Source: Longimicrobium sp. (GTDB lineage Bacteria; Gemmatimonadota; Gemmatimonadetes; Longimicrobiales; Longimicrobiaceae). Taken from it: a DNA stretch of 64,000 bases. Below, piece by piece: positions 36,380 through 49,176 of this stretch (position 1 is the stretch's first letter; each line of letters starts with the position of its first letter). The translations under genes and the position numbers were made by a program. The notes under the pieces are model-generated. The model was not told the origin of the DNA, did not search any database, and saw nothing but the letters and a program-made list of their open reading frames with translations. The stretch is taken from NCBI GenBank assembly GCA_036387335.1, contig DASVTZ010000177.1, forward strand, positions 2,413-66,412, given 5' to 3'.

Positions 36380-36392
36380 GGTGGCTCTGTGT

Positions 36393-36466
<74 letters not shown>

Positions 36467-36473
36467 TAGCCCC

Positions 36474-36507
36474 AAACCCCGCCGCCGAAGCCGGGCGGTT
36501 TTTTGTT
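36474..36507 (+). terminator. Intrinsic terminator-like hairpin inside the tRNA cluster
   Basis: CCGCC..GGCGG stem followed by TTTTTT. Confidence 0.55.
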
Positions 36508-36510
36508 CGG

Positions 36511-36583
36511 GGCCAGGTAGCTCAGTTGGTAGAGCATGCGACTGAAAATCGCAGTGTCGGGGGTTCGACTCCCTCCCTGGCCA
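36511..36583 (+). tRNA. tRNA-Phe(GAA)
   Basis: Cloverleaf GGCCAGG..CTGAAAA..CCTGGCC-A. Confidence 0.95.
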
Positions 36584-36608
36584 TCTGGGTCGAGAATGTG
36601 AAGTCTGT

Positions 36609-36681
36609 ACGCCTGTAGCTCAATTGGTAGAGCACCGGTCTCCAAAACCGGCGGTTGGGGGTTCGATTCCCTCCGGGCGTG
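36609..36681 (+). tRNA. tRNA-Trp(CCA)
   Basis: ACGCCTG/CGGGCGT-G acceptor; CCGGT-CTCCAAA-ACCGG. Confidence 0.95.
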
Positions 36682-36700
36682 TGCGGACACCAAGCGATAC

Positions 36701-36773
36701 GCCGCTATCGTCTAGGGGACTAGGACGGCGCCCTCTCACGGCGCAAACCGGGGTTCGAATCCCCGTAGCGGTA
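36701..36773 (+). tRNA. tRNA-Glu(CTC)
   Basis: GCGCC-CTCTCAC-GGCGC anticodon arm; GGTTCGAATCC. Confidence 0.93.
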
Positions 36774-36802
36774 TTGACGGACAAGCTCGGGACCCGGGCG
36801 TT

Positions 36803-36875
<73 letters not shown>

Positions 36876-36897
36876 TGTAGGGAATTGATCGGGATCG

Positions 36898-36969
36898 GCT
36901 CCCATCGTCTATCGGTTAGGACACGACCCTTTCAAGGTTGAGAGCGGGGTTCGACTCCCCGTGGGAGCG
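36898..36969 (+). tRNA. tRNA-Glu(TTC)
   Basis: CGACC-CTTTCAA-GGTTG. Confidence 0.93.
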
Positions 36970-36976
36970 CTGGTAC

Positions 36977-37049
36977 GCGGGAATAGCTCAGTTGGTAGAG
37001 CGCAACCTTGCCAAGGTTGAGGTCGCCGGTTCGAGCCCGGTTTCCCGCT
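36977..37049 (+). tRNA. tRNA-Gly(GCC)
   Basis: CAACC-TTGCCAA-GGTTG. Confidence 0.95.
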
Positions 37050-37094
37050 CTGTTGAAGGACCGGAGAGGTGAGTTCTCCGCAAGCAGTACCCAA

Positions 37095-37168
37095 GGGGCC
37101 GTAGCTCAGTCGGTTAGAGTGCCGGACTGTCACTCCGGAGGTCGCGGGTTCGAGTCCCGTCGGCCCCG
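37095..37168 (+). tRNA. tRNA-Asp(GTC)
   Basis: CCGGA-CTGTCAC-TCCGG. Confidence 0.95.
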
Positions 37169-37239
37169 CTTGAAGATGAGCGAAAGTGCTTTTTGAAAAT
37201 CCGGGTTGGTTCGCTCACCCCTCCGGGGGCGGGCACAGC

Positions 37240-37312
<73 letters not shown>

Positions 37313-37328
37313 TGAAAGGCGAGTACAT

Positions 37329-37412
37329 GGTGGGGTGGCCGAGTGGCTAATGGCAGCAGACTGTAAATCTGCCGGGCTTCGCCCTACGTAGGTTCGAATC
37401 CTACCCCCACCA
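37329..37412 (+). tRNA. tRNA-Tyr(GTA)
   Basis: GCAGA-CTGTAAA-TCTGC; long variable arm. Confidence 0.95.
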
Positions 37413-37426
37413 CTCAGGGCAGCATC

Positions 37427-37500
37427 GGGCGGTTAGCTCAGTTGGTTAGAGCGCCACGTTGACATCGTGGAGGTCACAAGTTCGAGTCTTGTACCGCCCA
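37427..37500 (+). tRNA. tRNA-Val(GAC)
   Basis: CCACG-TTGACAT-CGTGG. Confidence 0.95.
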
Positions 37501-37519
37501 CTGCGCAGGTGACAAACAC

Positions 37520-37592
37520 GGGGCTGTAGCTCAGATGGGAGAGCGCTGCAATCGCACTGCAGAGGTCAGGGGTTCGATTCCCCTCAGCTCCA
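37520..37592 (+). tRNA. tRNA-Ala(CGC)
   Basis: CTGCA-ATCGCAC-TGCAG; G3:U70. Confidence 0.93.
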
Positions 37593-37607
37593 TTGGTACG
37601 GGAGAGC

Positions 37608-37679
37608 GCCACCGTAGCTCAGTGGTAGAGCACTCGATTCGTAATCGAGCGGTCGTCGGTTCAATCCCGACCGGTGGCT
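37608..37679 (+). tRNA. tRNA-Thr(CGT)
   Basis: CTCGA-TTCGTAA-TCGAG. Confidence 0.95.
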
Positions 37680-37720
37680 CTTGTTCAAATCGCCGATCCG
37701 GCGTTAGCTTGTAGGCCGTC

Positions 37721-37793
37721 GCGGGAGTAGCTCAGTTGGTAGAGCATCAGCTTCCCAAGCTGAGGGTCGCGGGTTCGAGCCCCGTCTCCCGCT
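37721..37793 (+). tRNA. tRNA-Gly(CCC)
   Basis: TCAGC-TTCCCAA-GCTGA. Confidence 0.95.
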
Positions 37794-37802
37794 TGTGTGT
37801 GC

Positions 37803-37875
37803 AGCCCTCTGGTGTAATTGGCAACACGCCTGACTCTGACTCAGGAAAGTCCAGGTTCGATCCCTGGGGGGGCTA
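37803..37875 (+). tRNA. tRNA-Gln(CTG)
   Basis: CCTGA-CTCTGAC-TCAGG; acceptor AGCCCTC/GGGGGCT. Confidence 0.92.
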
Positions 37876-37899
37876 CTTTCGGTTTCGGTTGCGGGTTTT

Positions 37900-37986
37900 G
37901 GAGAGGTGGGTGAGTGGCTAAAACCAACGGTTTGCTAAACCGTCCTGTCCAAAAGACAGACGCGGGTTCGAATCCCGCCCTCTCCG
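37900..37986 (+). tRNA. tRNA-Ser(GCT)
   Basis: ACGGT-TTGCTAA-ACCGT; long variable arm; G73. Confidence 0.93.
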
Positions 37987-37996
37987 CTCCGCGTTT

Positions 37997-38082
37997 GGAC
38001 CGGTGTCCGAGTGGCTTAAGGAGCACGATTGGAAATCGTGTGGGGTGAATAGCCCTCGTGGGTTCGAATCCCACCCGGTCCG
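37997..38082 (+). tRNA. tRNA-Ser(GGA)
   Basis: CACGA-TTGGAAA-TCGTG; long variable arm. Confidence 0.93.
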
Positions 38083-38106
38083 CTCGGTGGTCGCAGGTGG
38101 TTGTTT

Positions 38107-38180
38107 CGGGACGTGGCTCAGCCCGGTAGAGCACTCGCTTCGGGAGCGAGGGGTCGCCGGTTCAAATCCGGCCGTCCCGA
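38107..38180 (+). tRNA. tRNA-Pro(CGG)
   Basis: CTCGC-TTCGGGA-GCGAG; C1-G72. Confidence 0.95.
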
Positions 38181-38195
38181 CTGTGTGCAGGATCA

Positions 38196-38278
38196 GGAGG
38201 CGTAGTCTAATTGGTAAGGCACCGCACTCGAAATGCGGCGGGCGCAAGCCTTTGGGGGTTCGAGTCCCTCCGCCTCCG
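38196..38278 (+). tRNA. tRNA-Ser(CGA)
   Basis: CCGCA-CTCGAAA-TGCGG; variable arm GGGCGCAAGCCT; G73. Confidence 0.92.
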
Positions 38279-38473: not shown

Positions 38474-39733
38474 CTAAGGCCGAAACACTTCAGACTTCCC
38501 GAGTTGTGGCTGCAGCGCGGAAGTCAATGACGCCATCGCGTCTACTAACGCCGACTGAATCGCGGCCCACTGCTCCTCGGGTGCTGTCAAACCGCGGTCG
38601 GTTACTGTGTAGCGGATCTCGGATCGGCGGTTGTCGTCGAGACGCTCCCACTCAAGAGGCGCGCCGAAGGATGCTTCGATCGCAGACCTATTTCTATGCA
38701 GTGCATCGAAGGCTTCTTTGTTTTTGTCCTTGTCATTCGTGCCGATCATGAGCTCGACAGCGGTTGCGTCGGTCCAAACGACGTAATTCCAACTGTATCC
38801 CGTAATTCCGACAGCTCCACCTAGCCAATGCGCAGTAGTGGGCGATCGGTTGGCATGGAAGGGCAAGCCCTTTCTCCTCGCTCTGTCGAGCAACTGCTTC
38901 CAGAATCGAAGCCGGCGATCATCGCGTGTCTCAGCCTGCTTTTTATCGGATCGTCGGCTCGGATCGAGATCGGCTATCTGATCGATGATGACACGCCCAA
39001 GTTGACGTGTGTTCAGCGGATTCCCGTTTCGATTGAGCAGTCCGATCTGTAGCTGCAACGCGATTTCCCGCAGCACTGGTTTCGTCGGGGTCACGTGATG
39101 CCCATCCTTCTCGACTTCGATACTCCCGCTCTCCAACGCCCGGATGGCGTACGGCCCAAACTCGACCACCGTAGCGAGTGAGTCTCCGTGTTTCCGAGTG
39201 GGTTGTTGCTCAACTAGGTCGGGCGCGGTCCGTACGGCCTCTACCTTAGGCGCGCGCAACGCTTCCTCAATGACTCCACTCAGCCTGGAGAACAGCTCTT
39301 CGCGCCGGGCGGAGCGGAGCGCGACCAAGGGCTTGGAAGGACTGTTCACCGCCTGAAAGTCACAGAGCCCCTCAGTCTGCTCGAAACGGCAAGGTTTGAT
39401 GATTACTGGTAGGATCAGGGTTCCCCGTTTCTCCGCCGCCCTAAGAAGCGGTGGCAACTCGTCCATCGTAATGAAATCAGACGCAAGGAAATCGGCGGTG
39501 ACCAGCAGCACCGCCACTCTCGCGTGCTCTAATGCATTTCGGATCTCCTCTCGCCAACGGGTGCCGGGTTTGATCCTTGTGTCGTCCCACAAGGTGATTG
39601 CACCCTGCCGTTCCAGTGGTTTCAGGTGTACCCGCAGTCGCTGCAGCCACGTTGTGTCTGCGTGGCTGTACGAAACAAATACCAGGTTCTGACCGGCGGA
39701 GCTAACGGCAGAGGTAGCGGGTCGTGGGCTCAT
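38474..39733 (-). CDS. TIR-domain protein with central small helical domain and C-terminal DUF4268-like domain
   Basis: VFVSYSHAD..LWDDTRIKPG..LLVTADFLASDFITMDEL (TIR with catalytic-position Glu); RFWKQLL..FDALH..IEASFGAPLEWERLD (DUF4268-like); visibly AT-richer than its flanks. Confidence 0.85.
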   Translation of the reverse strand: MSPRPATSAVSSAGQNLVFVSYSHADTTWLQRLRVHLKPLERQGAITLWDDTRIKPGTRWREEIRNALEHARVAVLLVTADFLASDFITMDELPPLLRAAEKRGTLILPVIIKPCRFEQTEGLCDFQAVNSPSKPLVALRSARREELFSRLSGVIEEALRAPKVEAVRTAPDLVEQQPTRKHGDSLATVVEFGPYAIRALESGSIEVEKDGHHVTPTKPVLREIALQLQIGLLNRNGNPLNTRQLGRVIIDQIADLDPSRRSDKKQAETRDDRRLRFWKQLLDRARRKGLPFHANRSPTTAHWLGGAVGITGYSWNYVVWTDATAVELMIGTNDKDKNKEAFDALHRNRSAIEASFGAPLEWERLDDNRRSEIRYTVTDRGLTAPEEQWAAIQSALVDAMASLTSALQPQLGKSEVFRP

Positions 39734-40132: not shown

Positions 40133-40855
40133 ATGGACCAGCAGCAGAGCAAGACGCGGGGCGTCGCGGACATCGTCTTCCTGATCGACGTGTCGGGGAG
40201 CATGGCCCCGGCGATCGACGCGCTTAAGGCGAACATCGGGACGTTCGTGGAGTCGCTGAGCAAGGGGGAGGGGAACAACGTGTCGCCCGTGCGCGACTGG
40301 CGCGCCAAGGCGGTGGGCTACCGCGACTTCGACCACGACGCGGAGCCGTTCATCGACAACCCCTTCGTCACCGACGTGGAGGCGCTCCGGTCGCAGCTCG
40401 CCGGGCTGACGGCGGAGGGCGGCGAGGACGAGCCGGAGTCGCTCCTGGACGCGCTCTTCAAGGTCGCGAACATGGGGCAGACGGAGAAGGGCGCGCAGAG
40501 CCTGGACGCGACCAGGTGGCGCTACCGCAGCGACGCGGCGCGTGTAGTCGTCGTGTTCACCGACGCCTCGTTTAAGCCCGCGATGACCATCCCCGAGGCC
40601 AAGGGCGGCGGCGTGCAGGACGTGACCAACGCCGTCATCAACAACCGCATCATCCTGAGCCTCTTCGCCCCCGACATGCCCGGCTACGACGAGCTGAGCC
40701 AGATCGACAAGTCGGAGTGGGAGGCGATCTCGTACCCCGGGATGAACCCGCAGGAGGCGCTGGTGAAGTTCACCACCGACCAGGCGAACTTCAAGAACAC
40801 GCTGCGCCAGCTCGCGGCCAGCGTGTCGAAGTCGGCGGAGACGGTAGCGCTTTGA
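40133..40855 (+). CDS. vWA domain protein
   Basis: DIVFLIDVSGSM (MIDAS DxSxS), VGYRD, GGEDEPESLLDAL, VVVVFTDA; start at MDQQQS. Confidence 0.9.
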   Translation: MDQQQSKTRGVADIVFLIDVSGSMAPAIDALKANIGTFVESLSKGEGNNVSPVRDWRAKAVGYRDFDHDAEPFIDNPFVTDVEALRSQLAGLTAEGGEDEPESLLDALFKVANMGQTEKGAQSLDATRWRYRSDAARVVVVFTDASFKPAMTIPEAKGGGVQDVTNAVINNRIILSLFAPDMPGYDELSQIDKSEWEAISYPGMNPQEALVKFTTDQANFKNTLRQLAASVSKSAETVAL

Positions 40856-40861
40856 ACGGAT

Positions 40862-40930
40862 AGTGCTGAGTGCTAAGTGCTAAGTGCTGGGTTGAAGGCA
40901 CTTAGGACTTAGCACTTAGGACTCAGCACT
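40862..40930. repeat. Inverted heptamer arrays (AGTGCTA)n/(TAGCACT)n between the vWA and kinase genes
   Basis: agtgctg agtgcta agtgcta agtgct ... gcact taggact tagcact taggact cagcact. Confidence 0.8.
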
Positions 40931-40954
40931 CACGCACCTCTCCTGCATTCCGCG

Positions 40955-42346
40955 ATGGCCAAGAAGCTAAAAGTCGGCGACGAGATCAACGGGTACCGGA
41001 TCACCGACGTGTTCGGGCCGGGGGCGATGGCCATCTCGTATGGGGCGGTGAACGGCGCGGGGCAGCGCGTCTTCTTCAAGCAGTACAAGTCGCCGGCGGT
41101 GACGGTGGACTGGTACCGCGACTACGTGCGATACCAGAAGGAGCTCAACCGCCGCATCGCCGAGAGCCCGGCGCGGAACTACTGCGTGCGCGCCATCGAC
41201 GCGTTCGAGGCGGTGTGGGGCGGGCGCAACTACTTCCAGGTCTTCGAGTTCGTGGAGAACGGCGCGGACCTGGGCGGGATCTTTGAGCGCGAGGCGGCGG
41301 AGAACGGCGGCCGCCTGCTCACGGTGCCGTTCAGCTCGCGCCTGTGGGAGCAGCACCTGATCTGGGCCAAGGTGCTGATGTCCGGCATCGATACGCTCCA
41401 CAAGGCGAAGGTGGCGCACGCGGACCTGAAGCCGGACAACGCGTTCCTGATCGAGGACCCCTCCATCGCGGCCGGCTTCCAGCTCAAGCTGATCGACGTG
41501 GACTTCTCGATCCTCACGGACCAGACGGCGCCCTGGCACGGGAAGCAGGGGTACGTGGGGACCGACAACTACCGGTCGCCCGAGCACTTCACCGCGGGCG
41601 CCACGCCGGGTGCCGCGTCGGACGTCTTCACCTGCGGGCTGATCCTCTACCAACTGCTGACCGGCCGCCATCCCTACTGGTCGGACGACCAGGCGGAGTA
41701 CGCGAAGATGGCCCTGGCGCACGCCGCCGAGCGGCCCATCCTGGGCGGCGCGGTGCCGGCTCCCGCCAGCGCCGAGGCCATCGCGGAGGTCATGCACCGC
41801 TGCCTCGCCCCGCGCGCCGCGGACCGCCCCACCGCCACCGAAGTCCGCGACGTGCTCACCGGGCGCGCGGGCGGCATCGCGGTGAAGGCGGCGCCCGCGC
41901 CCGCGCCCGCTGCCGCGCCCACGCCCGCGCCCGCGCCGGCCGCGCCTGCACCGCCGCCGGCCGCACCGCGCGCGCCGCAGCCGGCGCCCGCTCCGCCAGC
42001 GCCCGCCGCGTCGGGAGGGGACGGCGCGCCGATCCGCTCGGAGCGCATCCAGCTCGTGGGCGAGTCCGGGGAGGTGCTGACGATGGGGACGCGGACGCCG
42101 CTGGGGAAGCACATCGTCCGCCAGTTCGGAGCCGACTTCAACGTGTGGGATGCGGAGCAGTGCGCCGTGGAGCGCGGGGCCGACGGGGTCTGGCAGGTCG
42201 TGCCGGTTCCGGGTACGACCAACGAGACGCTGCTGAACGGCCAGACGCTGACCGGTGCGCACCCCCTACGCGAGGGCGACGTGATCGCGGTGGGGCGTGC
42301 GGCCAAGGGGATCGCGAAGCTGCCGCTCACCGTGCGAGCGGGCTGA
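40955..42346 (+). CDS. Hanks-type Ser/Thr protein kinase with Pro/Ala linker and C-terminal FHA-like domain
   Basis: GPGAMA G-loop, FFKQY Lys, HADLKPDN catalytic loop, IDVDFS, YRSPE, DVFTCGLILYQLLTG; TTNETLLNG..GDVIAVG FHA-like. Confidence 0.92.
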   Translation: MAKKLKVGDEINGYRITDVFGPGAMAISYGAVNGAGQRVFFKQYKSPAVTVDWYRDYVRYQKELNRRIAESPARNYCVRAIDAFEAVWGGRNYFQVFEFVENGADLGGIFEREAAENGGRLLTVPFSSRLWEQHLIWAKVLMSGIDTLHKAKVAHADLKPDNAFLIEDPSIAAGFQLKLIDVDFSILTDQTAPWHGKQGYVGTDNYRSPEHFTAGATPGAASDVFTCGLILYQLLTGRHPYWSDDQAEYAKMALAHAAERPILGGAVPAPASAEAIAEVMHRCLAPRAADRPTATEVRDVLTGRAGGIAVKAAPAPAPAAAPTPAPAPAAPAPPPAAPRAPQPAPAPPAPAASGGDGAPIRSERIQLVGESGEVLTMGTRTPLGKHIVRQFGADFNVWDAEQCAVERGADGVWQVVPVPGTTNETLLNGQTLTGAHPLREGDVIAVGRAAKGIAKLPLTVRAG

Positions 42347-42442
42347 GGGAACGGAGAGAACGCGGCGGAGCTTCGCCGCTGGAGGAGGGCGCGATGATCG
42401 CCATCGAGCCGACCCAGTCGTGACCGCATGTGGAGGACGACC

Positions 42443-43276
42443 GTGACGGAGAGCAAGAACACGCCCGAAGAGGGAACCGCATCCACCACTCCGCTGGAGG
42501 AGGCACCGCTCGCGACCCCGACGCCTGAGGAGGGGACCGCGTCCATGGGAGCTGCTCCATCGACCGGCGACACCGCGGCGGCGACTCCTGCGCCCGTAAC
42601 CGAAACACCGGCCGTGGATGCCGATGCCACGTTGATCTCGCCGCCGCCCGCCGACGCGACGCTCGAATCGCCCGCGGCTACGTCCACCGAGGGAGGCGCA
42701 GTCGTGGAAGCGCCGCCCGCGGAATCCGGCACGGAAGCACCGGCCTCGGAGGCGCCGACCACCGAGACTGCGACGGAAGCACCGGCTGCGGAGGCACCGC
42801 CCGTCGAAGCGCCGGCCGCGGAGCTGCCGACTACCGAGACTCCGGCGGAAGTGCCGGCCGCCGAGGCGCTCACGCCGCCCAGCGCTCCCGCCACGGACGC
42901 TTCGGCCGGGGCACCCGCCGCGGTGCCCCCGACGCTCCCGGCCGATCCGCCGGGGGGCGCGCTCCGTTCCGAGCGCATCAACCTCGTCTCGTCGGCCGGC
43001 CAGGCGATGACGGTGGGGGTGCGGACGCCACTGGGGAAGCACGTCGTGCGGCGCTTCGGCGAGGAGTCGAACGTGTGGGATACGGAGCAGTGCGTGCTGG
43101 AGCGCGGGCCGGATGGCGCCTGGCAGATCGTTCCGGGTGAGGGCACCACCAACGAGACGCTGCTGAACGGCGAGGCGATCACCTCGCCCCGGCCGCTCCA
43201 CGACGGCGACGTGATCGCGGTGGGCCGGGTGGAGAAGGGGATCGTGAAGCTGCCGCTCACCGCGCGGCAGGGCTGA
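42443..43276 (+). CDS. FHA-like domain protein with long acidic Thr/Pro-rich disordered N-terminus
   Basis: GTG start after GGAGG; ~170 aa E/A/P/T-rich region; C-terminal domain about two-thirds identical to the kinase FHA-like domain. Confidence 0.85.
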   Translation: MTESKNTPEEGTASTTPLEEAPLATPTPEEGTASMGAAPSTGDTAAATPAPVTETPAVDADATLISPPPADATLESPAATSTEGGAVVEAPPAESGTEAPASEAPTTETATEAPAAEAPPVEAPAAELPTTETPAEVPAAEALTPPSAPATDASAGAPAAVPPTLPADPPGGALRSERINLVSSAGQAMTVGVRTPLGKHVVRRFGEESNVWDTEQCVLERGPDGAWQIVPGEGTTNETLLNGEAITSPRPLHDGDVIAVGRVEKGIVKLPLTARQG

Positions 43277-43284
43277 GACGGCGT

Positions 43285-43674
43285 ATGGCGTGGAAGTGCC
43301 CCCAGTGCGGCTTCGTCCACGAGGACGACGCTACCCTGAGCTGCGAGGCGTGCGGCTTCACCCGTGCCGGGAAGCTCGTGCTCGTGTCCGAGGAGACCAC
43401 GAAGCAGCTCAGCGTGGGGGTGGACACCGCCATCGGCAAGCGGCTGCTGGAGAGCTTCGCGGGCGGCGACCACGTGTACGCGGCGGACCCGCAGTTCCTG
43501 GTGGCGCGCGACCTGGTGCGGGGCGGGTGGAGCATCTCCCCCGCACCCGCCACCAAGAACCCGACCTTTCTCAACGGCGCGGCGCTCGGCGACGCGCCGG
43601 CGCCGCTGGTGAAGGGCGCCATCATCTCCATTGGCCCGACCCGGCTGCGGCTGCGCGTCGAGAGCGAACCGTGA
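43285..43674 (+). CDS. Zn-ribbon plus FHA-like domain protein
   Basis: WKCPQCG..CEACG (RanBP2-like); IGK..TKNPTFLNG..GAIISIG. Confidence 0.8.
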   Translation: MAWKCPQCGFVHEDDATLSCEACGFTRAGKLVLVSEETTKQLSVGVDTAIGKRLLESFAGGDHVYAADPQFLVARDLVRGGWSISPAPATKNPTFLNGAALGDAPAPLVKGAIISIGPTRLRLRVESEP

Positions 43675-44924
43675 TCCAGCCCGACGATCTCCCCACCGAT
43701 GGCGCGCCGGAAGCCGGCGAGAACGCGCCGCTCGTGCCCGAAGCCGCGCCTGCCGCCGAGCCGCCGCCGGAAGACACGCCCGCTCCGGCCGTGGAACCGG
43801 CGCCTGCGCCTGAACCGGCCGCTGCCCCGGCCGTCAGCGGATCCGCGGGCCTGGTGAACGTGCTGGAAGTGCGGGAGCTGGACTGGGATGCCATCCGCGC
43901 CGCCGTCAGCACCCCGTTCGAGCAGGAGCGGGCGGAGCGGATCATCGGGCGGATGGAGGAGCGGCTGGCGGGGGGCGGGCCTCTGGGGCTCGCCTTCGAG
44001 GAGTACGCGGCGGGACCGGACGACCGCGCGGTGCTGATCGGCGAGGACTGGCCGGTAGGCGAGGTGTGGTTCGTGGGCGATCTGCACGGCGACCTGCTGG
44101 CGCTGGAGTCCGCGCTCCAGCACATCGACCGGAGCGGCGGCGGGGCGGATGCGCGCATCGTCTTCCTGGGCGACCTGTTCGACGACGGGGTGCACTCGGC
44201 CGAGGTCGTGCTGCGCATCTTCGAGCTGCTGCTGGACGGGCCCATGCGCGTGACCGTGGTGACGGGCAACCACGACGACGCGGTGCAGTGGGAGGACGGG
44301 CGCTTTCAATCGACCGTCCTGCCATCCGACTTCACGGACTGGCTGAACCAGGCCACCGCGGACGGCCACCCCTGGGCGGAGCGGCTGGGGCGGACAATCG
44401 TGCACTTCTTTCGCCGCACGCCGCGCGCGCTCTTCTTTCCAGACGGGCTGTTGGTGGCGCACGGCGGGATTCCGCACACGGACCTGCACCCCGTGCTGGC
44501 CGAGTGCCGGGACTGGAACGACCCGCGCGTGCTGCAGGACTTCGTCTGGCTGCGCGCCCATCCGCGCGCCCGCAAGCGCATCCCCAACCGCACCACGCGG
44601 GGGAGCGAGTTCGGGCGCGAGGACTTCGCGGCCTTCTGCGATCTGGCCACGCGGCTGGGGCGCCCGGTGAGCCGCATGCTGCGCGGCCACGACCACGTGG
44701 AGGAGCGCTTCGCCGTCTTCCCCGCCTGGGCGGAGCACCCCGCGCTCACCATCAACACCCTGTCGCACCGGCTTCCGCGCGAGGTGTTCGGGCCGTACGA
44801 GCGGGTGCCGGTCGTGGCGCGCTGGGTGCGCGGCGAGCTTCCGGAGGTGCGGCGGCTGTTCATCCCGCCCGAGCTGATCCGCGAGATCTACCCCGAGCCC
44901 GGCGGCGCGACGGAGGGCGGATGA
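43671..44924 (+). CDS. PPP-family (PP1-like) Ser/Thr metallophosphatase
   Basis: GDLHG, GDLFDDG, GNHD, HGG, DFVW, RGSEFG, RGHDH; GTG start overlapping the upstream stop. Confidence 0.88.
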   Translation: MIQPDDLPTDGAPEAGENAPLVPEAAPAAEPPPEDTPAPAVEPAPAPEPAAAPAVSGSAGLVNVLEVRELDWDAIRAAVSTPFEQERAERIIGRMEERLAGGGPLGLAFEEYAAGPDDRAVLIGEDWPVGEVWFVGDLHGDLLALESALQHIDRSGGGADARIVFLGDLFDDGVHSAEVVLRIFELLLDGPMRVTVVTGNHDDAVQWEDGRFQSTVLPSDFTDWLNQATADGHPWAERLGRTIVHFFRRTPRALFFPDGLLVAHGGIPHTDLHPVLAECRDWNDPRVLQDFVWLRAHPRARKRIPNRTTRGSEFGREDFAAFCDLATRLGRPVSRMLRGHDHVEERFAVFPAWAEHPALTINTLSHRLPREVFGPYERVPVVARWVRGELPEVRRLFIPPELIREIYPEPGGATEGG

Positions 44925-45499
44925 GCCGCGTCGTCGCGCGCTGCCCCAACTGCGGCGTGGAGAACGACGACGCCCGGGGCGGCCCGTGCGAGGTGTGCGG
45001 CACCGAGCTGCGCTTCTGGTGCCGCCTGCACGGGGCGGAGACGGGGTGGCTCGACTCCCCTGACTGCCCCCGCTGCGCCGCGGAGGAGCAGGCGCGCCGC
45101 TCGCGCCCGGCGCCGCCGCCCGCGCCCGCTCGGCGGCCCGCCCCCTCTCGCTGGCGCCGCCGCGCTCCCGTCGAGCGCCCGCACGTTCCGCCCCCCGAGC
45201 CCGCCCGCGACCCGCGCGAAGTGCTGCGCGAGAGCGCCGAGGACCTGCGCCCGTACATGGAGGCCGGGGCGGACGTGGCGAATCGGCTAGTCCGCGCGAC
45301 GTTCGCCGTGATCCGCAGCGTCATCCTGTTCGGAGTGCTGGGCGCGATCGTGGGCGGAGTGTTCGCCTACAACCAGCGCGGCGACCTGGTGTGGCCGGTG
45401 ATCTCCGGGGCCCTCATCGGTGGCGCGGTTGGCCTCTTCTTCGGCGGCATCGGCGCGCTCCGCATCCTATTCGCGGGCACCTCTCGCCGCGTTCGGTAA
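44921..45499 (+). CDS. Double Zn-ribbon protein with two C-terminal Gly-rich TM helices
   Basis: CPNC, CEVC, CxxH, CPRC; Pro/Arg linker; FGVLGAIVGGVF and GALIGGAVGLFFGGIG; ATGA overlap. Confidence 0.8.
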   Translation: MSRVVARCPNCGVENDDARGGPCEVCGTELRFWCRLHGAETGWLDSPDCPRCAAEEQARRSRPAPPPAPARRPAPSRWRRRAPVERPHVPPPEPARDPREVLRESAEDLRPYMEAGADVANRLVRATFAVIRSVILFGVLGAIVGGVFAYNQRGDLVWPVISGALIGGAVGLFFGGIGALRILFAGTSRRVR

Positions 45500-45592: not shown

Positions 45593-48500
45593 CTACGCGA
45601 GAGGGAGCGTCAGGGTAAAGGTGCTGCCGGCACCCACCTCGCTTTCCGCCGCGAGCGTGCCGCCCATACCCAGGGCAAGGTCGCGGCTGATGGCGAGGCC
45701 GAGCCCCACCCCCTGCTGGCTCTCGTGCGTCCGGTGCCGCTCCACCTGCACGAACGGCTCGAAGATGCGCTCGAGCTGCTCCGCGGGAATCCCCCGGCCG
45801 GTATCGGTCACCTGGATGCGCATTACGCCCGCCGAGGCGTCGGGGACGCAGCGCACGGCGACGCGGCCCCCCTCGCCCGTGAACTTGACGGCGTTGGTGA
45901 GAAGGTTGAGCAGCACCTGGCGCAGCTTCTCCGGGTCGGCGCGGACGAGGTGCGGCGGGCCGCACGCGTCGTGGTCGAAGGCGAGCCCCTTGGCGGCGAT
46001 CTGCGGAGACATCAGGGGCTCGATGTCCGCCAGGAGCGCCGCGAGGTCGACTTCGGCGATGTTGTACTCCACCTGGCCTGCATCCAGCCGCGCGAAGTTG
46101 AGGATGTCGTTGACCAGCGACAGGAGGTACTGGTTGGCGCGCCGGATCCGCTCCAGGTCGTGCTCCTGCGCCTCGGTGACCGGGCCCCGCAGCCCCATGG
46201 TGAGGAGCTCCGCGTACCCCGCGATGGCGTTCAGCGGCGTCCTTAGCTCGTGGCTCATCGTGGAGAGGAACTGGCTCTTGGCCTGGTTCGCGGCCTCCGC
46301 GTGCGCCCGCTGGCGCTCGGCGTCGGCGCGCGCGGCTTCCACCTCCTGCCGCGCCCGCACCTGCTCCGTCACGTCGTAGGCGGCGCTGGCGATGGCGTAC
46401 ACCTCGCCGGCCGCGTCGCGCAGCGGCTGGTAGCCGATGTTGAAGAAGCGTTCCTCCAGCGCGCCGTCCGCCTGGTTCGCGATCAGCACGCCCCGCTCCG
46501 TGGCGGAATAGGGCTCGCCCGTCTCGTACACGCGGTCCATCGTCTCCCAGTAGCCCGTGCCCGCGAGCTCGGGGAAGGCCTCGCGCACCGTGCGGCCCAG
46601 CAGCGGCCGGCCCTGCCCCGGCGAGCGGGCGTAGACGGGGCTCACGATGGAGTAGACGTGCTCCGGGCCGGTGAGCACCGCCACGGCGATGGGCGCCTGT
46701 TCGAAGACCTCGCGCAGCCGCTCCTCGGCGGCTTCGGCGGCGTCGCGGGCGGCGCGCTCGACCTCCACGTCCGTGTTGGTGCCGAACCAGCGCAGCACGC
46801 GCCCCGCCGCGTCGCGCACCGGCATCGCGCGGGTCAGGAAGCGGCGGAACGCGCCGTCCGCGCCACGCAGCGGGATGATCATCTCGAACGGGGCCCCGGT
46901 GGCGAGCGAGGCCTGCCACCGCTCCACGACTCCGGCCAGCTGGGCGGGGTCGTGCACGGACTGCCACCCCCACCCCTCCATCTGCTCGGGCGTGGCGCCG
47001 GTGTACTCGTACCAGCGCGCGTTGTACCAGTCGATGTAGCCGTCCGCGCGCGCCGTCCACGCCAGCGTGGGGATGGCGTCCGCGAGCGTACGGAACTGGC
47101 GCTCGCTTTCGGCCAGCGCGGCCTCGATGCGGCGGCGCGGGGCGATGTCGCGCCAGAACACCGCCACGCCCCCGGCGGCGGTCGGGTAGGCGTCCACCTC
47201 CGCCACCAGCTCCAGGCCCTGGCCGGCGTACTCAGCAGTGAAGTGGACCTCCACCCCCTCACGCGCCACCTGCCGGTACGAGCTCTCGAAGATGGTGCCC
47301 ACCGTGTCCGGAAAGGCCTCCCATATGCTTCGCCCCAGCAGTGACTCGCGCGCTACCCCCACGCTCCGCTCCATCGCGGCGTTGGCGCTGGTGAAGCGGA
47401 ATTCGGCGTCGAGCACGAAGTGCGCGTCGGCCATCGCCTCCAGGATCTCCTGTGCGTTGCGCCGCTCGTGCTCGGCCTCCTGCCGCGCTGCCTCCGCCTC
47501 CCGGTACAGCCGCGCGTTGTCGACCGCCGCCGCCGCACGCCGCGCCAGCTCCTCCGCGAACGCCACGTCGTCCGGCCCGAAGCGCCGCCCGGACTCGCCG
47601 ATGCCGAAGCCGAGCGCGCCGAGCACCTCGCCGTGCGCGACCACGGGCACGGTCATCAGCGAGCGGAAGCCGATGGAGCGGAGCAGCTCCAGGTGCTCGC
47701 TGTCGCGCGCTACCTGCTCCAGCACTGCGTCCGGGATCTCCTCGATCAGCTCGGGCTCTCCCGTGCGGAGCACCAGGGCGGCTCCGGCGGGCTCGTCCGC
47801 GCGGATGGGGTAGCGCCGGGCGAGCTCGCGCACGAACGCCGTCCTCTCCGGGTCCGTGTGGTGGATCGCCACCATGCGCACGGTGCCGTCGCCGGCGTCC
47901 ACCGTGTACGCGCACCAGTCGGCGATGTCCGGCACGGCCAGGGCGACGACCTGCCGCAGGGTCGCCTCGTAGTCCAGCGACGATGCCAACCGCGTGCTCG
48001 CCTCGGCCAGGAAGGCAAGGCGTCGCGCGGCCTCGTCCGCCGCGGCGCGGGCCCGTTCCGCCTCGCCGGTGCGCGCCTCGAACTCCGCCGCTCCCTCCTG
48101 GAGCTGCTGGTTGGCCATCTCCAGCTCCAGCGCCTGCTCGGCGAGCTCGTCGTTCCGGGCGCGCAGCTCCGCCTCGGCGTGCAGGCGCGCTGAGACCTCC
48201 CGCCAGAACACCGCAATGCCGCCGTCCTCCGTCGGGTAGGCGTCGATCTCGATGTGGCGGTCGTATCCCTCGCCCACGTAGTGATGGGCGAAATGCACCT
48301 CTACCCGCTCCTCGACAACGCGCCGGTACTGCCGCTCCGCTTCCGTGCCCACGGAGGCGGGAAACACCTCCCAGTGCGTGCGTCCCAGCAGCGCCTCCGC
48401 CGGCATGCCCAGCGCCCGCAACGCGGCGCGGTTCACCGACAGGATGCGGAACTCCGCATCCATGGTGATGTGCTCGTCCGCCACCTGGTCGAGCACGCGC

Positions 48501-48960
48501 GCCGCACGGCGTTCCGCGCGCTCGGCCTCCACGCGATGGGTATCGTCGCGCAGGGTGAGCACCGCTCCTAGCCGCTCGCCCGCCGGCCCCACGATGGGGC
48601 GCGCCGTGCCCACGGCGAAGGTCTCGCCGCCGTCCGGCCGGCGGATGCGCCAGCGCTCGTCCACCACCGTCTCGCCGCGCAGGACCGCGCGGGAGAGCGG
48701 GAGCTCGGACGATGGATAGGGGCGGCCGTCCTCGGTGAGCAGGTTGTACGTCTTGGCGTAGCCTTCGGGGAGCACGTCCAGCCGGACGGTGCCGTGCATG
48801 CGCGCCGCCGCCTCGTTCACGAAGATGATGCGGCCTCCGCATCGGCCAGGATCACCCCCTCCGCGAGCTGCGCAAGCGCGGCCGCGACCAGTGAGGTCGG
48901 GCCGGTCTGCGAGTCTTCGTGTGGGACGGTGGGCGCGTGGCCCCGGGAGTCGGGCGGCAT
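45593..48960 (-). pseudogene. Multi-PAS/GAF sensor histidine kinase with a 1-nt frameshift near 48835 (real or sequencing error)
   Basis: N-terminus MPPDS..LAEGVILADA continues in another frame as GRIIFVNEAAARMHG; H-box SHELRTPLN, N-box NLLTNAVKF, G-boxes. Confidence 0.8.
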
Positions 48961-49176
48961 CCGGGTGCGGATGGGGGATGGAACGAACGCGGCGGGCGGC
49001 TCCGCCTCGCCAATCACAATCGGGCAAGGCAAGATACCGGCCCGTGTTCGTCGCACGATAGCCGATTCCGGGACGGTATGTAAGCGGGATGAAGTCAGCG
49101 CTTCTGCCGCGGTGCACCCTTGCCGAAGGGCGGATCGGGTGGCGGGAGCTTCAAGAGACGTACGCGAGCGGATGCT

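Follow-up and report, generated by a model that had tools for sequence, protein, structure and literature searches.

What does a bacterium use an operon for that combines a von Willebrand factor A (vWA) protein, a kinase, a phosphatase, several forkhead-associated (FHA)-like domains and a membrane zinc-ribbon protein, and is such an operon a dedicated defence system or a switch with some other role? Modules that unite a vWA protein with a kinase and a phosphatase are known from the TerY-P triad, from the ArnA/ArnB system and from a Deinococcus operon. The present case is a six-gene operon at positions 40133-45499 of a 64,000-nucleotide stretch of DNA from Longimicrobium sp. (GenBank assembly GCA_036387335.1, contig DASVTZ010000177.1, positions 2,413 to 66,412 of the forward strand), referred to here as the window. 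A first-pass annotation of the window had proposed it as a new phospho-switch conflict system. On comparative analysis, the locus is best read as the six-gene, lineage-specific form of a self-contained, horizontally transferred Ser/Thr phospho-switch cassette, which would act through phosphorylation-controlled assembly and serve a stress or physiological role, not dedicated anti-phage defence. This reading is given a probability of roughly 0.5; its functional part, an accessory stress or physiological role for the switch, stands at even odds or slightly less. The writer/eraser pair of kinase and phosphatase, a vWA protein with a metal ion-dependent adhesion site (MIDAS), FHA-like domains and a membrane-anchored zinc-ribbon protein are inherited together.

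Organization of the operon

The operon consists of six genes on the + strand and spans exactly 40133-45499, as seen from the listing of open reading frames (ORFs) and inspection of the start codons. The first gene, g1 (40133-40855), encodes a vWA protein of 240 amino acids (aa). It is followed by g2 (40955-42346; 463 aa), a Hanks kinase with an FHA-like tail, and g3 (42428-43276; 282 aa), an FHA-like protein with a Thr/Pro-rich tail. The last three genes are g4 (43285-43674; 129 aa), which encodes a Zn-ribbon-FHA-like protein, g5 (43671-44924; 417 aa), a PPP-type phosphatase with a GTG start, and g6 (44921-45499; 192 aa), a Zn-ribbon protein with two transmembrane helices. The spacer between g3 and g4 measures 8 nucleotides (nt), while g4/g5 and g5/g6 overlap by 4 nt each, as GTGA and ATGA, respectively. 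No terminator-like site was found within 40133-45499. The six genes form a real operon.

The anatomy given by the first-pass annotation has held up throughout. It had described six co-oriented genes, the last three of them overlapping, with intact kinase and phosphatase motifs, a phosphatase of the PPP rather than the PP2C type, three related FHA-like domains, a MIDAS vWA with a GGxDxPE-type motif, a terminal membrane protein, and a neighbouring TIR gene at a tRNA locus. The gene listing, the conserved motifs and the profile matches presented below agree with each of these points.

The four-gene core and its distribution

When all six proteins were used as tblastn queries, the vWA protein, kinase-FHA, PPP phosphatase and Zn-ribbon-transmembrane protein were found in a fixed order in ~55 loci. 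The carriers comprise Microvirga, Rhizobium, Roseomonas/Belnapia, sphingomonads, Beijerinckiaceae, Polaromonas/Burkholderiaceae, Myxococcota, Acidobacteriota and Gemmatimonadaceae. Wherever a locus outside Longimicrobium is flanked by sufficient sequence, it encodes, in this order, a vWA protein of 64-70%, a kinase-FHA protein of 50-57% and a PPP phosphatase of 47-60% identity, and in most non-Longimicrobium loci a zinc-ribbon protein comes next after the phosphatase. When the species genomes of GTDB were scanned by pattern, 80 loci were recovered, and a few metagenome-assembled genomes (MAGs) of Gemmatimonadaceae were among the carriers. Genes g3 and g4 are confined to a Longimicrobium-type clade, which a long stem branch sets apart in a tree of the concatenated proteins, and are absent from all non-Longimicrobium loci. 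By these comparisons the operon is a Longimicrobium-specific, six-gene version of a four-gene core, with g3 and g4 as a lineage-specific addition. The earlier view of a six-gene system is right as to the operon itself; the conserved unit is the four-gene core.

Within the genus, the genes are conserved as a unit: the phosphatase, g4 and the vWA gene share the same 14 carriers among 24 other Longimicrobium species genomes, and the vWA gene is found additionally as one contig-end fragment. Presence is all-or-none, since three high-quality Longimicrobium genomes (G001, G009 and G014) lack the vWA gene, g4 and the phosphatase alike. Longimicrobium is the only carrier among 301 sampled Gemmatimonadota genomes, and 6 of 151 Rhizobium species carry the cassette. 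It is present in nine of 72,556 plasmid records, all of them Rhizobium or Microvirga replicons of 1.1-1.4 Mb (megaplasmid or chromid size), and no copy of the phosphatase was found in 50,697 phage records. With no phage match and these nine large replicons only, an origin in phages or small plasmids is unsupported.

The cassette tree, built with FastTree only, conflicts with taxonomy. Rhizobium is nested inside Microvirga, the Alphaproteobacteria fall into two clades, and one MAG of the Gemmatimonadales clusters with Acidobacteriota. Because presence is patchy and all-or-none and the tree disagrees with taxonomy, the cassette is an accessory module that was spread horizontally and then inherited within genera. 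This distribution bears directly on the idea that the genes form a core housekeeping operon, either for Ser/Thr phosphorylation of the FhaA/FhaB-PstP-PknB cell-division type or for the threonine-phosphorylation pathway of a type VI secretion system. Such operons draw on similar domains (kinase, phosphatase, FHA), but the genes are missing from three high-quality genomes within Longimicrobium itself and from 145 of the 151 Rhizobium species, neither cell-division nor type VI secretion genes recur among the neighbours surveyed, and the phosphatase is not a PP2C enzyme. A housekeeping role is accordingly very improbable.

The kinase and the FHA-like domains

The g2 protein is built of a kinase domain at ~1-305 (Pfam Pkinase, 2.5e-24), a Pro/Ala linker and a divergent FHA-like domain at ~355-463 (Pfam FHA, 1.1e-3, just below the cut-off). 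Hydropathy analysis predicts no transmembrane segment in it. The residues K42 and E63 and the motifs HADLKPDN, DFS (not DFG) and SPEH are invariant across 62 kinase homologues. As its catalytic residues are thus maintained, the g2 kinase is probably active.

In g3, an acidic tail of 175 aa rich in Thr, Pro, Ala and Glu (17% Thr) precedes an FHA-like domain that scores above the Pfam cut-off (FHA, 9.5e-6, 26.4 bits); the coding DNA contains internal repeats. The composition of this tail matches that of the tails found on vWA proteins in other phyla. The FHA-like domain of g3 is 64% identical to the kinase tail and can be regarded as a duplicate of it. The g4 protein combines an N-terminal zinc ribbon (CPxCG...CxxCG; Pfam rubredoxin-like Zn ribbon, 1.3e-4) with an FHA-like domain (Pfam FHA weak, 0.088) in an ArnA/FraH-like architecture. 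Its orthologues (n=20) have a mean column identity of 84% and invariant Cys residues. Aligned with hhalign, the g4 family matches the kinase-tail profile with a probability of 98.8% (E 8e-17). When this profile was compared with the PDB, the top 22 of 24 matches at E<=10 were FHA domains, led by those of kinesin-3 (KIF13B, 9e-4) and followed by Ki-67, Rv0020c, Rad53, RNF8 and EssC. These profile matches indicate that the FHA-like domains of g2, g3 and g4 are homologous. The fold is assigned by profile, as an AlphaFold 2 model of g4 has a predicted local distance difference test score (pLDDT) of 55, too poor for a fold search.

The family is unusual in what it lacks. Its signature, GK...FWD..QC...TNETL.NG, has Lys at the position of the canonical Arg, Asp at that of the Ser and Gln at that of the His (GR / SxxH in the classical domain), and only the Asn is retained. 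The g4 counterpart, GK / YAADPQF / KNPTF, is likewise devoid of the canonical residues. The FHA domains of kinesin-3 and EssC, both among the PDB matches, are reported to act independently of phosphothreonine (pThr). The FHA-like domains encoded here are probably docking modules instead of classical pThr readers. The FHA-like domains described by the first-pass annotation are present; a role for them as pThr adaptors is doubtful, given that the canonical Arg, Ser and His are missing.

One Longimicrobium-type locus departs from the usual gene layout. In L021 (7778-11650), no separate g3 was called, and a kinase of 608 aa has a g4-like protein of 119 aa as its immediate neighbour, with a phosphatase of 549 aa after it. 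This suggests a fusion or a variable length of the low-complexity regions.

The vWA protein

The g1 protein is a cytoplasmic, stand-alone vWA protein with no hydrophobic segment by hydropathy. It matches two Pfam families above their gathering scores (VWA_2, 2.6e-8; VWA, 6.3e-8) and contains the MIDAS motif DVSGS together with GGEDEPE and FTDA. An AlphaFold 2 model of moderate confidence (pLDDT 70, predicted template modelling score 0.74) shows a vWA fold followed by two C-terminal helices. The top 50 PDB matches of this model are all integrin beta I-domains, the best with an E of 6.5e-9 and a TM-score of ~0.6.

Across 33 homologues from four phyla, the mean column identity of the vWA alignment is 84%, and g1 shares 65-70% identity with the aligned sequences from outside Longimicrobium. 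Such high conservation suggests that the protein may present many interaction surfaces simultaneously or may self-assemble. The conservation of the vWA protein is also far above that of the kinase or the phosphatase from the same cassette. Homologues in other phyla carry an acidic, Ser/Thr/Pro-rich N-terminal tail of 50-80 aa, which Longimicrobium g1 lacks. A search of the 72,556 plasmids with g1 recovered its own cassette and weak, generic vWA matches only, with no vWA from ter plasmids among them. Distant matches on plasmids of Paenibacillus and Natrinema were rejected as relatives, being unrelated giant vWA proteins.

The spacer between g1 and g2 contains a long hairpin (40861-40930, + strand) composed of (AGTGCTA)n repeats and their complement, as detected by TRF. 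The RNA is predicted to fold with a free energy of -52.3 kcal/mol (z -6.0). The motif has 361 matches in the source genome and none for the reversed control; the hairpin is one copy of a genome-wide family of dispersed heptamer palindromes that resemble repetitive extragenic palindromic (REP) elements. Being a copy of such a repeat, it was rejected as an operon-specific regulator. At the same junction in other Longimicrobium genomes, hairpins are formed from different heptamers (CAGTGCC, CACAGAG, CGGCACT). The g1-g2 hairpin could serve to stabilise the mRNA or function as an attenuator.

The phosphatase

The g5 protein consists of a Pro/Ala-rich N-terminus, a short conserved helical region and a catalytic domain of calcineurin/lambda-phosphatase-like type (Pfam Metallophos, 1.7e-14). 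The motifs GDLHGD (GDxHGD), GDLFDDG, GNHD, HGG and RGHDH are invariant among 36 sequences, with one departure from the classical pattern: the phosphate-binding Arg of GDxxDRG is an Asp throughout the family. A profile of 36 diverse family members was compared with the PDB and matched calcineurin first (8.4e-13), then PP1 and PP2A, over ~225 positions. Among the 60 PDB matches listed, 59 are PPP Ser/Thr phosphatases, the exception being the flagellar protein FAP15. The best PHROG match is a NinI/lambda-type Ser/Thr phosphatase (8.5e-16). Relatives of g5 form 271 clusters at E<=1e-30 in a representative library of 1.84 billion proteins. The assignment of g5 as a PPP-type phosphatase is supported by these profile matches.

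The calcineurin-like superfamily has other activities, and g5 could in principle be a nucleotide or cyclic-nucleotide phosphodiesterase of the ApaH or SpdA kind, in which case the cassette would couple its kinase to a small-molecule signal. The best NCBIfam match is ApaH, albeit at 5e-6 and far under its cut-off, with PdeM and SpdA also matched. The family-wide replacement of the GDxxDRG Arg by Asp would fit such a change in substrate class, and phosphodiesterases of the calcineurin superfamily recur in conflict systems (PMC7159879). Against this stand the order of the structural matches, in which calcineurin, PP1 and PP2A rank first and all listed structures save FAP15 are Ser/Thr phosphatases, the NinI/lambda-type top PHROG, and the constant pairing of the phosphatase gene with a Hanks kinase that is probably active. 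A phosphodiesterase is an unlikely identity for g5.

The membrane zinc-ribbon protein

The g6 protein has an N-terminal double zinc ribbon with eight Cys/His residues (a weak Pfam match, 0.017), an Arg/Pro-rich linker and two C-terminal transmembrane helices. By hydropathy its hydrophobic segments lie at ~122-152 and ~155-187, and none occurs in g1-g5. The two helices are GxxxG-rich and resemble a Gly-zipper. In other phyla, almost every locus has a protein of the same architecture, with double zinc ribbon, Pro-rich linker and C-terminal hydrophobic region, after the phosphatase.

Several Longimicrobium genomes contain not one g6 but 3-5 divergent, tandem Zn-ribbon-transmembrane paralogues in its place. 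Such arrays lie in loci L034 (9176-12771), L042 (9077-12628), L043 (1506-3492) and L032 (4416-6368). The ribbon is conserved among the paralogues, the linkers and transmembrane parts vary, and one copy in L043 has an in-frame stop.

Genomic context and the question of defence

The operon adjoins a candidate defence gene. A TIR-DUF4268 gene (38474-39733, - strand; Pfam TIR_2 4e-16 and DUF4268 1.5e-27; PADLOC PDC-S11 2e-37 and ThsB 4e-20) lies 400 bp from the operon in divergent orientation, and an array of 19 tRNA genes (36392-38278) lies on its far side, so that both are immediately upstream of the operon. This adjacency, with both units beside the tRNA array, is what speaks for a joint defence island linked to the tRNA genes, where the TIR protein would be an NADase under the control of the phospho-switch. 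The comparison with related loci speaks otherwise. The operon proteins of the two nearest relatives, L018 and L015, are ~80-99% identical (g5 90%) and their tRNA array is the same, but neither has TIR-DUF4268 in this interval; by tblastn, the gene was found in none of ~100 related loci. The G+C content of the TIR region is 57-59%, against ~73% in the operon, and in other Longimicrobium genomes the operon occupies other genomic positions. The TIR-DUF4268 neighbour is an unrelated, coincidental insert, and a joint system is effectively refuted, with hardly any probability left to it. The link to defence proposed by the first-pass annotation finds no support in this neighbour.

The site itself is informative. 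The order of the tRNA genes is conserved between the window (36392-38278), L018 (5968-7860) and L015 (17948-18987), and since it is shared by the two nearest relatives, the array is a stable chromosomal feature and not part of a mobile element. The slot beside it holds the TIR gene in the window, cytochrome c-like and multicopper-oxidase-like ORFs at the same junction in L018 (7944-10693), and no TIR gene in L015, and is for this reason recognized as a variable insertion hotspot.

A wider survey took in eight contexts annotated with Pfam, together with 147 ORFs that flank 35 loci of other phyla. In other Longimicrobium genomes, the operon is accompanied by histidine kinases and ffh/rpsP/rimM/trmD, or by purL/purF and aldo-keto reductases. 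In Rhizobium, Sphingomonas, a myxobacterium, a Vicinamibacterales MAG and Polaromonas, the cassette is surrounded by genes for metabolism or housekeeping. No recurrent neighbour was found among the 147 flanking ORFs, which were called by a crude, home-made gene caller based on G+C content at third codon positions: no Pfam family exceeds five members among the 25 commonest listed per library, and no integrase or transposase reaches at least two members among the families listed. The PADLOC matches listed for the flanks are few and scattered (two members for each of mad3 and mad8, a single PDC-S09, and otherwise generic matches to MotB, helicases and ABC proteins). A defence-island context, for which the first-pass annotation had suggested a check, was therefore not seen in either the eight contexts or the flanking ORFs.

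In L020, L027, L029, L034, L042, L043, L108 and L111, a histidine kinase or response regulator is encoded no more than a few kb away from the cassette, and the window itself has a convergent 1174-aa PAS/GAF kinase near the operon (45593-49117, - strand). Because only 2-3 of the 147 flanking ORFs have HisKA, HATPase or receiver domains, this proximity may be due to chance in kinase-rich genomes.

As to known defence systems, no PADLOC model matches g1, g3, g5 or g6. The matches of g2 (PD-T4-6, mad6, PglW and MkoA, the best at 1.6e-25) extend over the generic kinase domain only. PD-T4-6 is a stand-alone kinase gene, whereas g2 sits in a multi-gene cassette. The operon is unclassified by PADLOC, as the first-pass annotation had supposed, and unlike a typical defence-island resident.

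A model for the phospho-switch

The following mechanism is proposed for the phospho-switch. The kinase would phosphorylate an acidic, Thr-rich disordered tail, which belongs to the vWA protein outside Longimicrobium and to g3 here. Phosphorylation would toggle the assembly of the vWA protein with the FHA-like proteins, and the g5 phosphatase would reset the phosphorylation state. The membrane protein g6 would either tether the complex to the membrane or relay its state there. The tail is taken as the kinase substrate because it occurs on the vWA protein elsewhere and on g3 in Longimicrobium. This apparent relocation, from the vWA protein to an FHA protein of its own, can serve as a natural experiment to identify the kinase substrate. 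The assembly switch is modelled on the ArnA/ArnB-ArnC-PP2A system, in which the same four domain families are found and which alone among such systems has been dissected biochemically. The roles that the first-pass annotation had assigned, with the vWA protein as sensor, the phosphatase holding the system off and the two-helix protein as effector, are pure inference.

Several observations weigh against an assembly switch with a stress or physiological role. The loss of the pThr-binding Arg, Ser and His means that a pThr-dependent assembly of the Arn kind is not guaranteed. A profile search with g1 found neither an ArnB nor a vWA2 chain, and the structures that match its model best are integrin beta I-domains, not ArnB. 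The Asp in place of the phosphate-binding Arg sets the g5 family apart from classical Ser/Thr phosphatases, and the survey of neighbours depends on crude gene calls and on the commonest families. Three further points, namely the accessory, all-or-none and horizontally transferred distribution, the two GxxxG-rich helices that make g6 a small Gly-zipper membrane protein, and the arrays of 3-5 divergent g6 paralogues in some Longimicrobium genomes, would fit a conflict system just as well, such as a new TerY-P-like anti-phage or abortive-infection system.

In such a system the vWA protein and kinase would sense infection, the phosphatase would restrain the response, and g6, as a Gly-zipper Zn-ribbon protein that is released or oligomerised, would damage the membrane. 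TerY-P-like modules have been shown to act as stand-alone anti-phage systems (summarised in PMC11090510), and in the window a candidate defence gene, TIR-DUF4268, adjoins the operon. On the other side, four of the six proteins have no PADLOC match, the TIR gene is missing from the locus even in the nearest relatives, with operon proteins ~80-99% identical, and the surveyed contexts and flanks show no enrichment of defence-island or mobile-element genes. Moreover, the phosphatase has no phage homologue, the plasmid copies are restricted to replicons of megaplasmid or chromid size, and the vWA protein is unusually conserved for a component of an arms race. Anti-phage activity is best kept as a tentative alternative. 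More specific, and more doubtful, is a version in which the cassette is a mobile immune or abortive-infection system that is shared across phyla and has so far gone unrecognised. Here, phosphorylation of Thr residues in the acidic, disordered tail would gate a non-canonical FHA-vWA assembly that controls a glycine-zipper membrane effector, to which Longimicrobium would have added FHA adaptors and, in some species, arrays of effector paralogues.

The phospho-switch with a stress or physiological role is the reading preferred here. The cassette is present in culturable, genetically tractable Rhizobium leguminosarum, Microvirga, Roseomonas and Sphingomonas, which makes its function, in defence or in stress, directly testable.

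Comparison with known systems

The closest parallel in logic is the ArnA/ArnB-ArnC-PP2A system, which controls the archaellum of Sulfolobus acidocaldarius. There, a kinase drives the formation of FHA/vWA oligomers and PP2A dissolves them (PMC7472852, PMC6509490). The likeness extends across the components of ArnA/ArnB-ArnC/ArnD-PP2A: the Zn-finger-FHA protein ArnA corresponds to g4 and the vWA protein ArnB to g1, Hanks kinases are present in both, and PP2A corresponds to g5. The pairing of a Zn-finger/FHA protein with a vWA protein is thereby matched by g4 and g1 at the level of architecture only, and that of a Hanks kinase writer with a PPP eraser by the predicted activities of g2 and g5. The differences are equally clear. 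Profile searches revealed no relation between the cassette proteins and the solved chains of ArnA or vWA2, and a structure search with the g1 model detected no homology by fold. The g1 protein is a bare vWA of 240 aa without the beta-sandwich and the phosphorylated C-terminal helix bundle of ArnB, and the FHA-like domains lack the Arg, Ser and His that bind pThr. Here, the components form one mobile bacterial operon with a membrane Zn-ribbon protein and have no link to motility genes.

The TerY-P triad pairs a TerY-like vWA protein with a PP2C phosphatase and a kinase that ends in a C-terminal Zn ribbon in the classical form or in an OB fold in the form validated as anti-phage (Anantharaman 2012 and Gao 2020, as cited in PMC11090510). 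Both are stand-alone, mobile vWA/kinase/phosphatase cassettes that include a zinc ribbon, and a phosphorylation-switch logic has been proposed. In the operon described here, however, the phosphatase is of the PPP type and no PP2C is encoded, the kinase tail is FHA-like, and the ribbons are found on g4 and on the membrane protein g6. The vWA protein g1 is a small MIDAS vWA with no match in PADLOC or on ter plasmids, a comparison that did not include a bona fide TerY sequence. With a PPP in place of PP2C, and with a kinase tail that is FHA-like where TerY-P has a Zn ribbon or an OB fold, the cassette is, as judged from its predicted domains, not a member of TerY-P. The differences listed by the first-pass annotation, namely the PPP phosphatase, the extra FHA-like proteins and the membrane Zn-ribbon protein, are all found.

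The operon DRA0331-DRA0334 of Deinococcus radiodurans encodes a vWA protein, a Ser/Thr protein kinase, a FraH-like FHA protein and a KI-FHA-PP2C protein (bioRxiv 10.64898/2026.01.23.701218). FHA docking modulates the antagonism between its kinase and phosphatase, and a stress or physiological role has been proposed (bioRxiv 10.64898/2026.01.23.701218). The order of vWA protein, kinase, FHA protein and phosphatase is the same as in the Longimicrobium operon, and one of the Deinococcus FHA domains is also atypical. In Deinococcus, the PP2C forms a fusion with an FHA domain, the kinase ends in transmembrane helices, and DRA0333 has the canonical GR/SxxH/NG motifs. By contrast, the present operon has a PPP phosphatase, a soluble kinase with an FHA-like tail of its own and a separate Zn-ribbon-transmembrane protein. 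Literature searches found no description of a cassette of vWA protein, kinase and metallophosphatase, and the four-gene cassette is apparently undescribed so far. Set beside these three systems, it is a compact, sharply bounded and strongly conserved variant that uses PPP instead of PP2C and brings together an FHA domain without the pThr pocket and a dedicated membrane partner.

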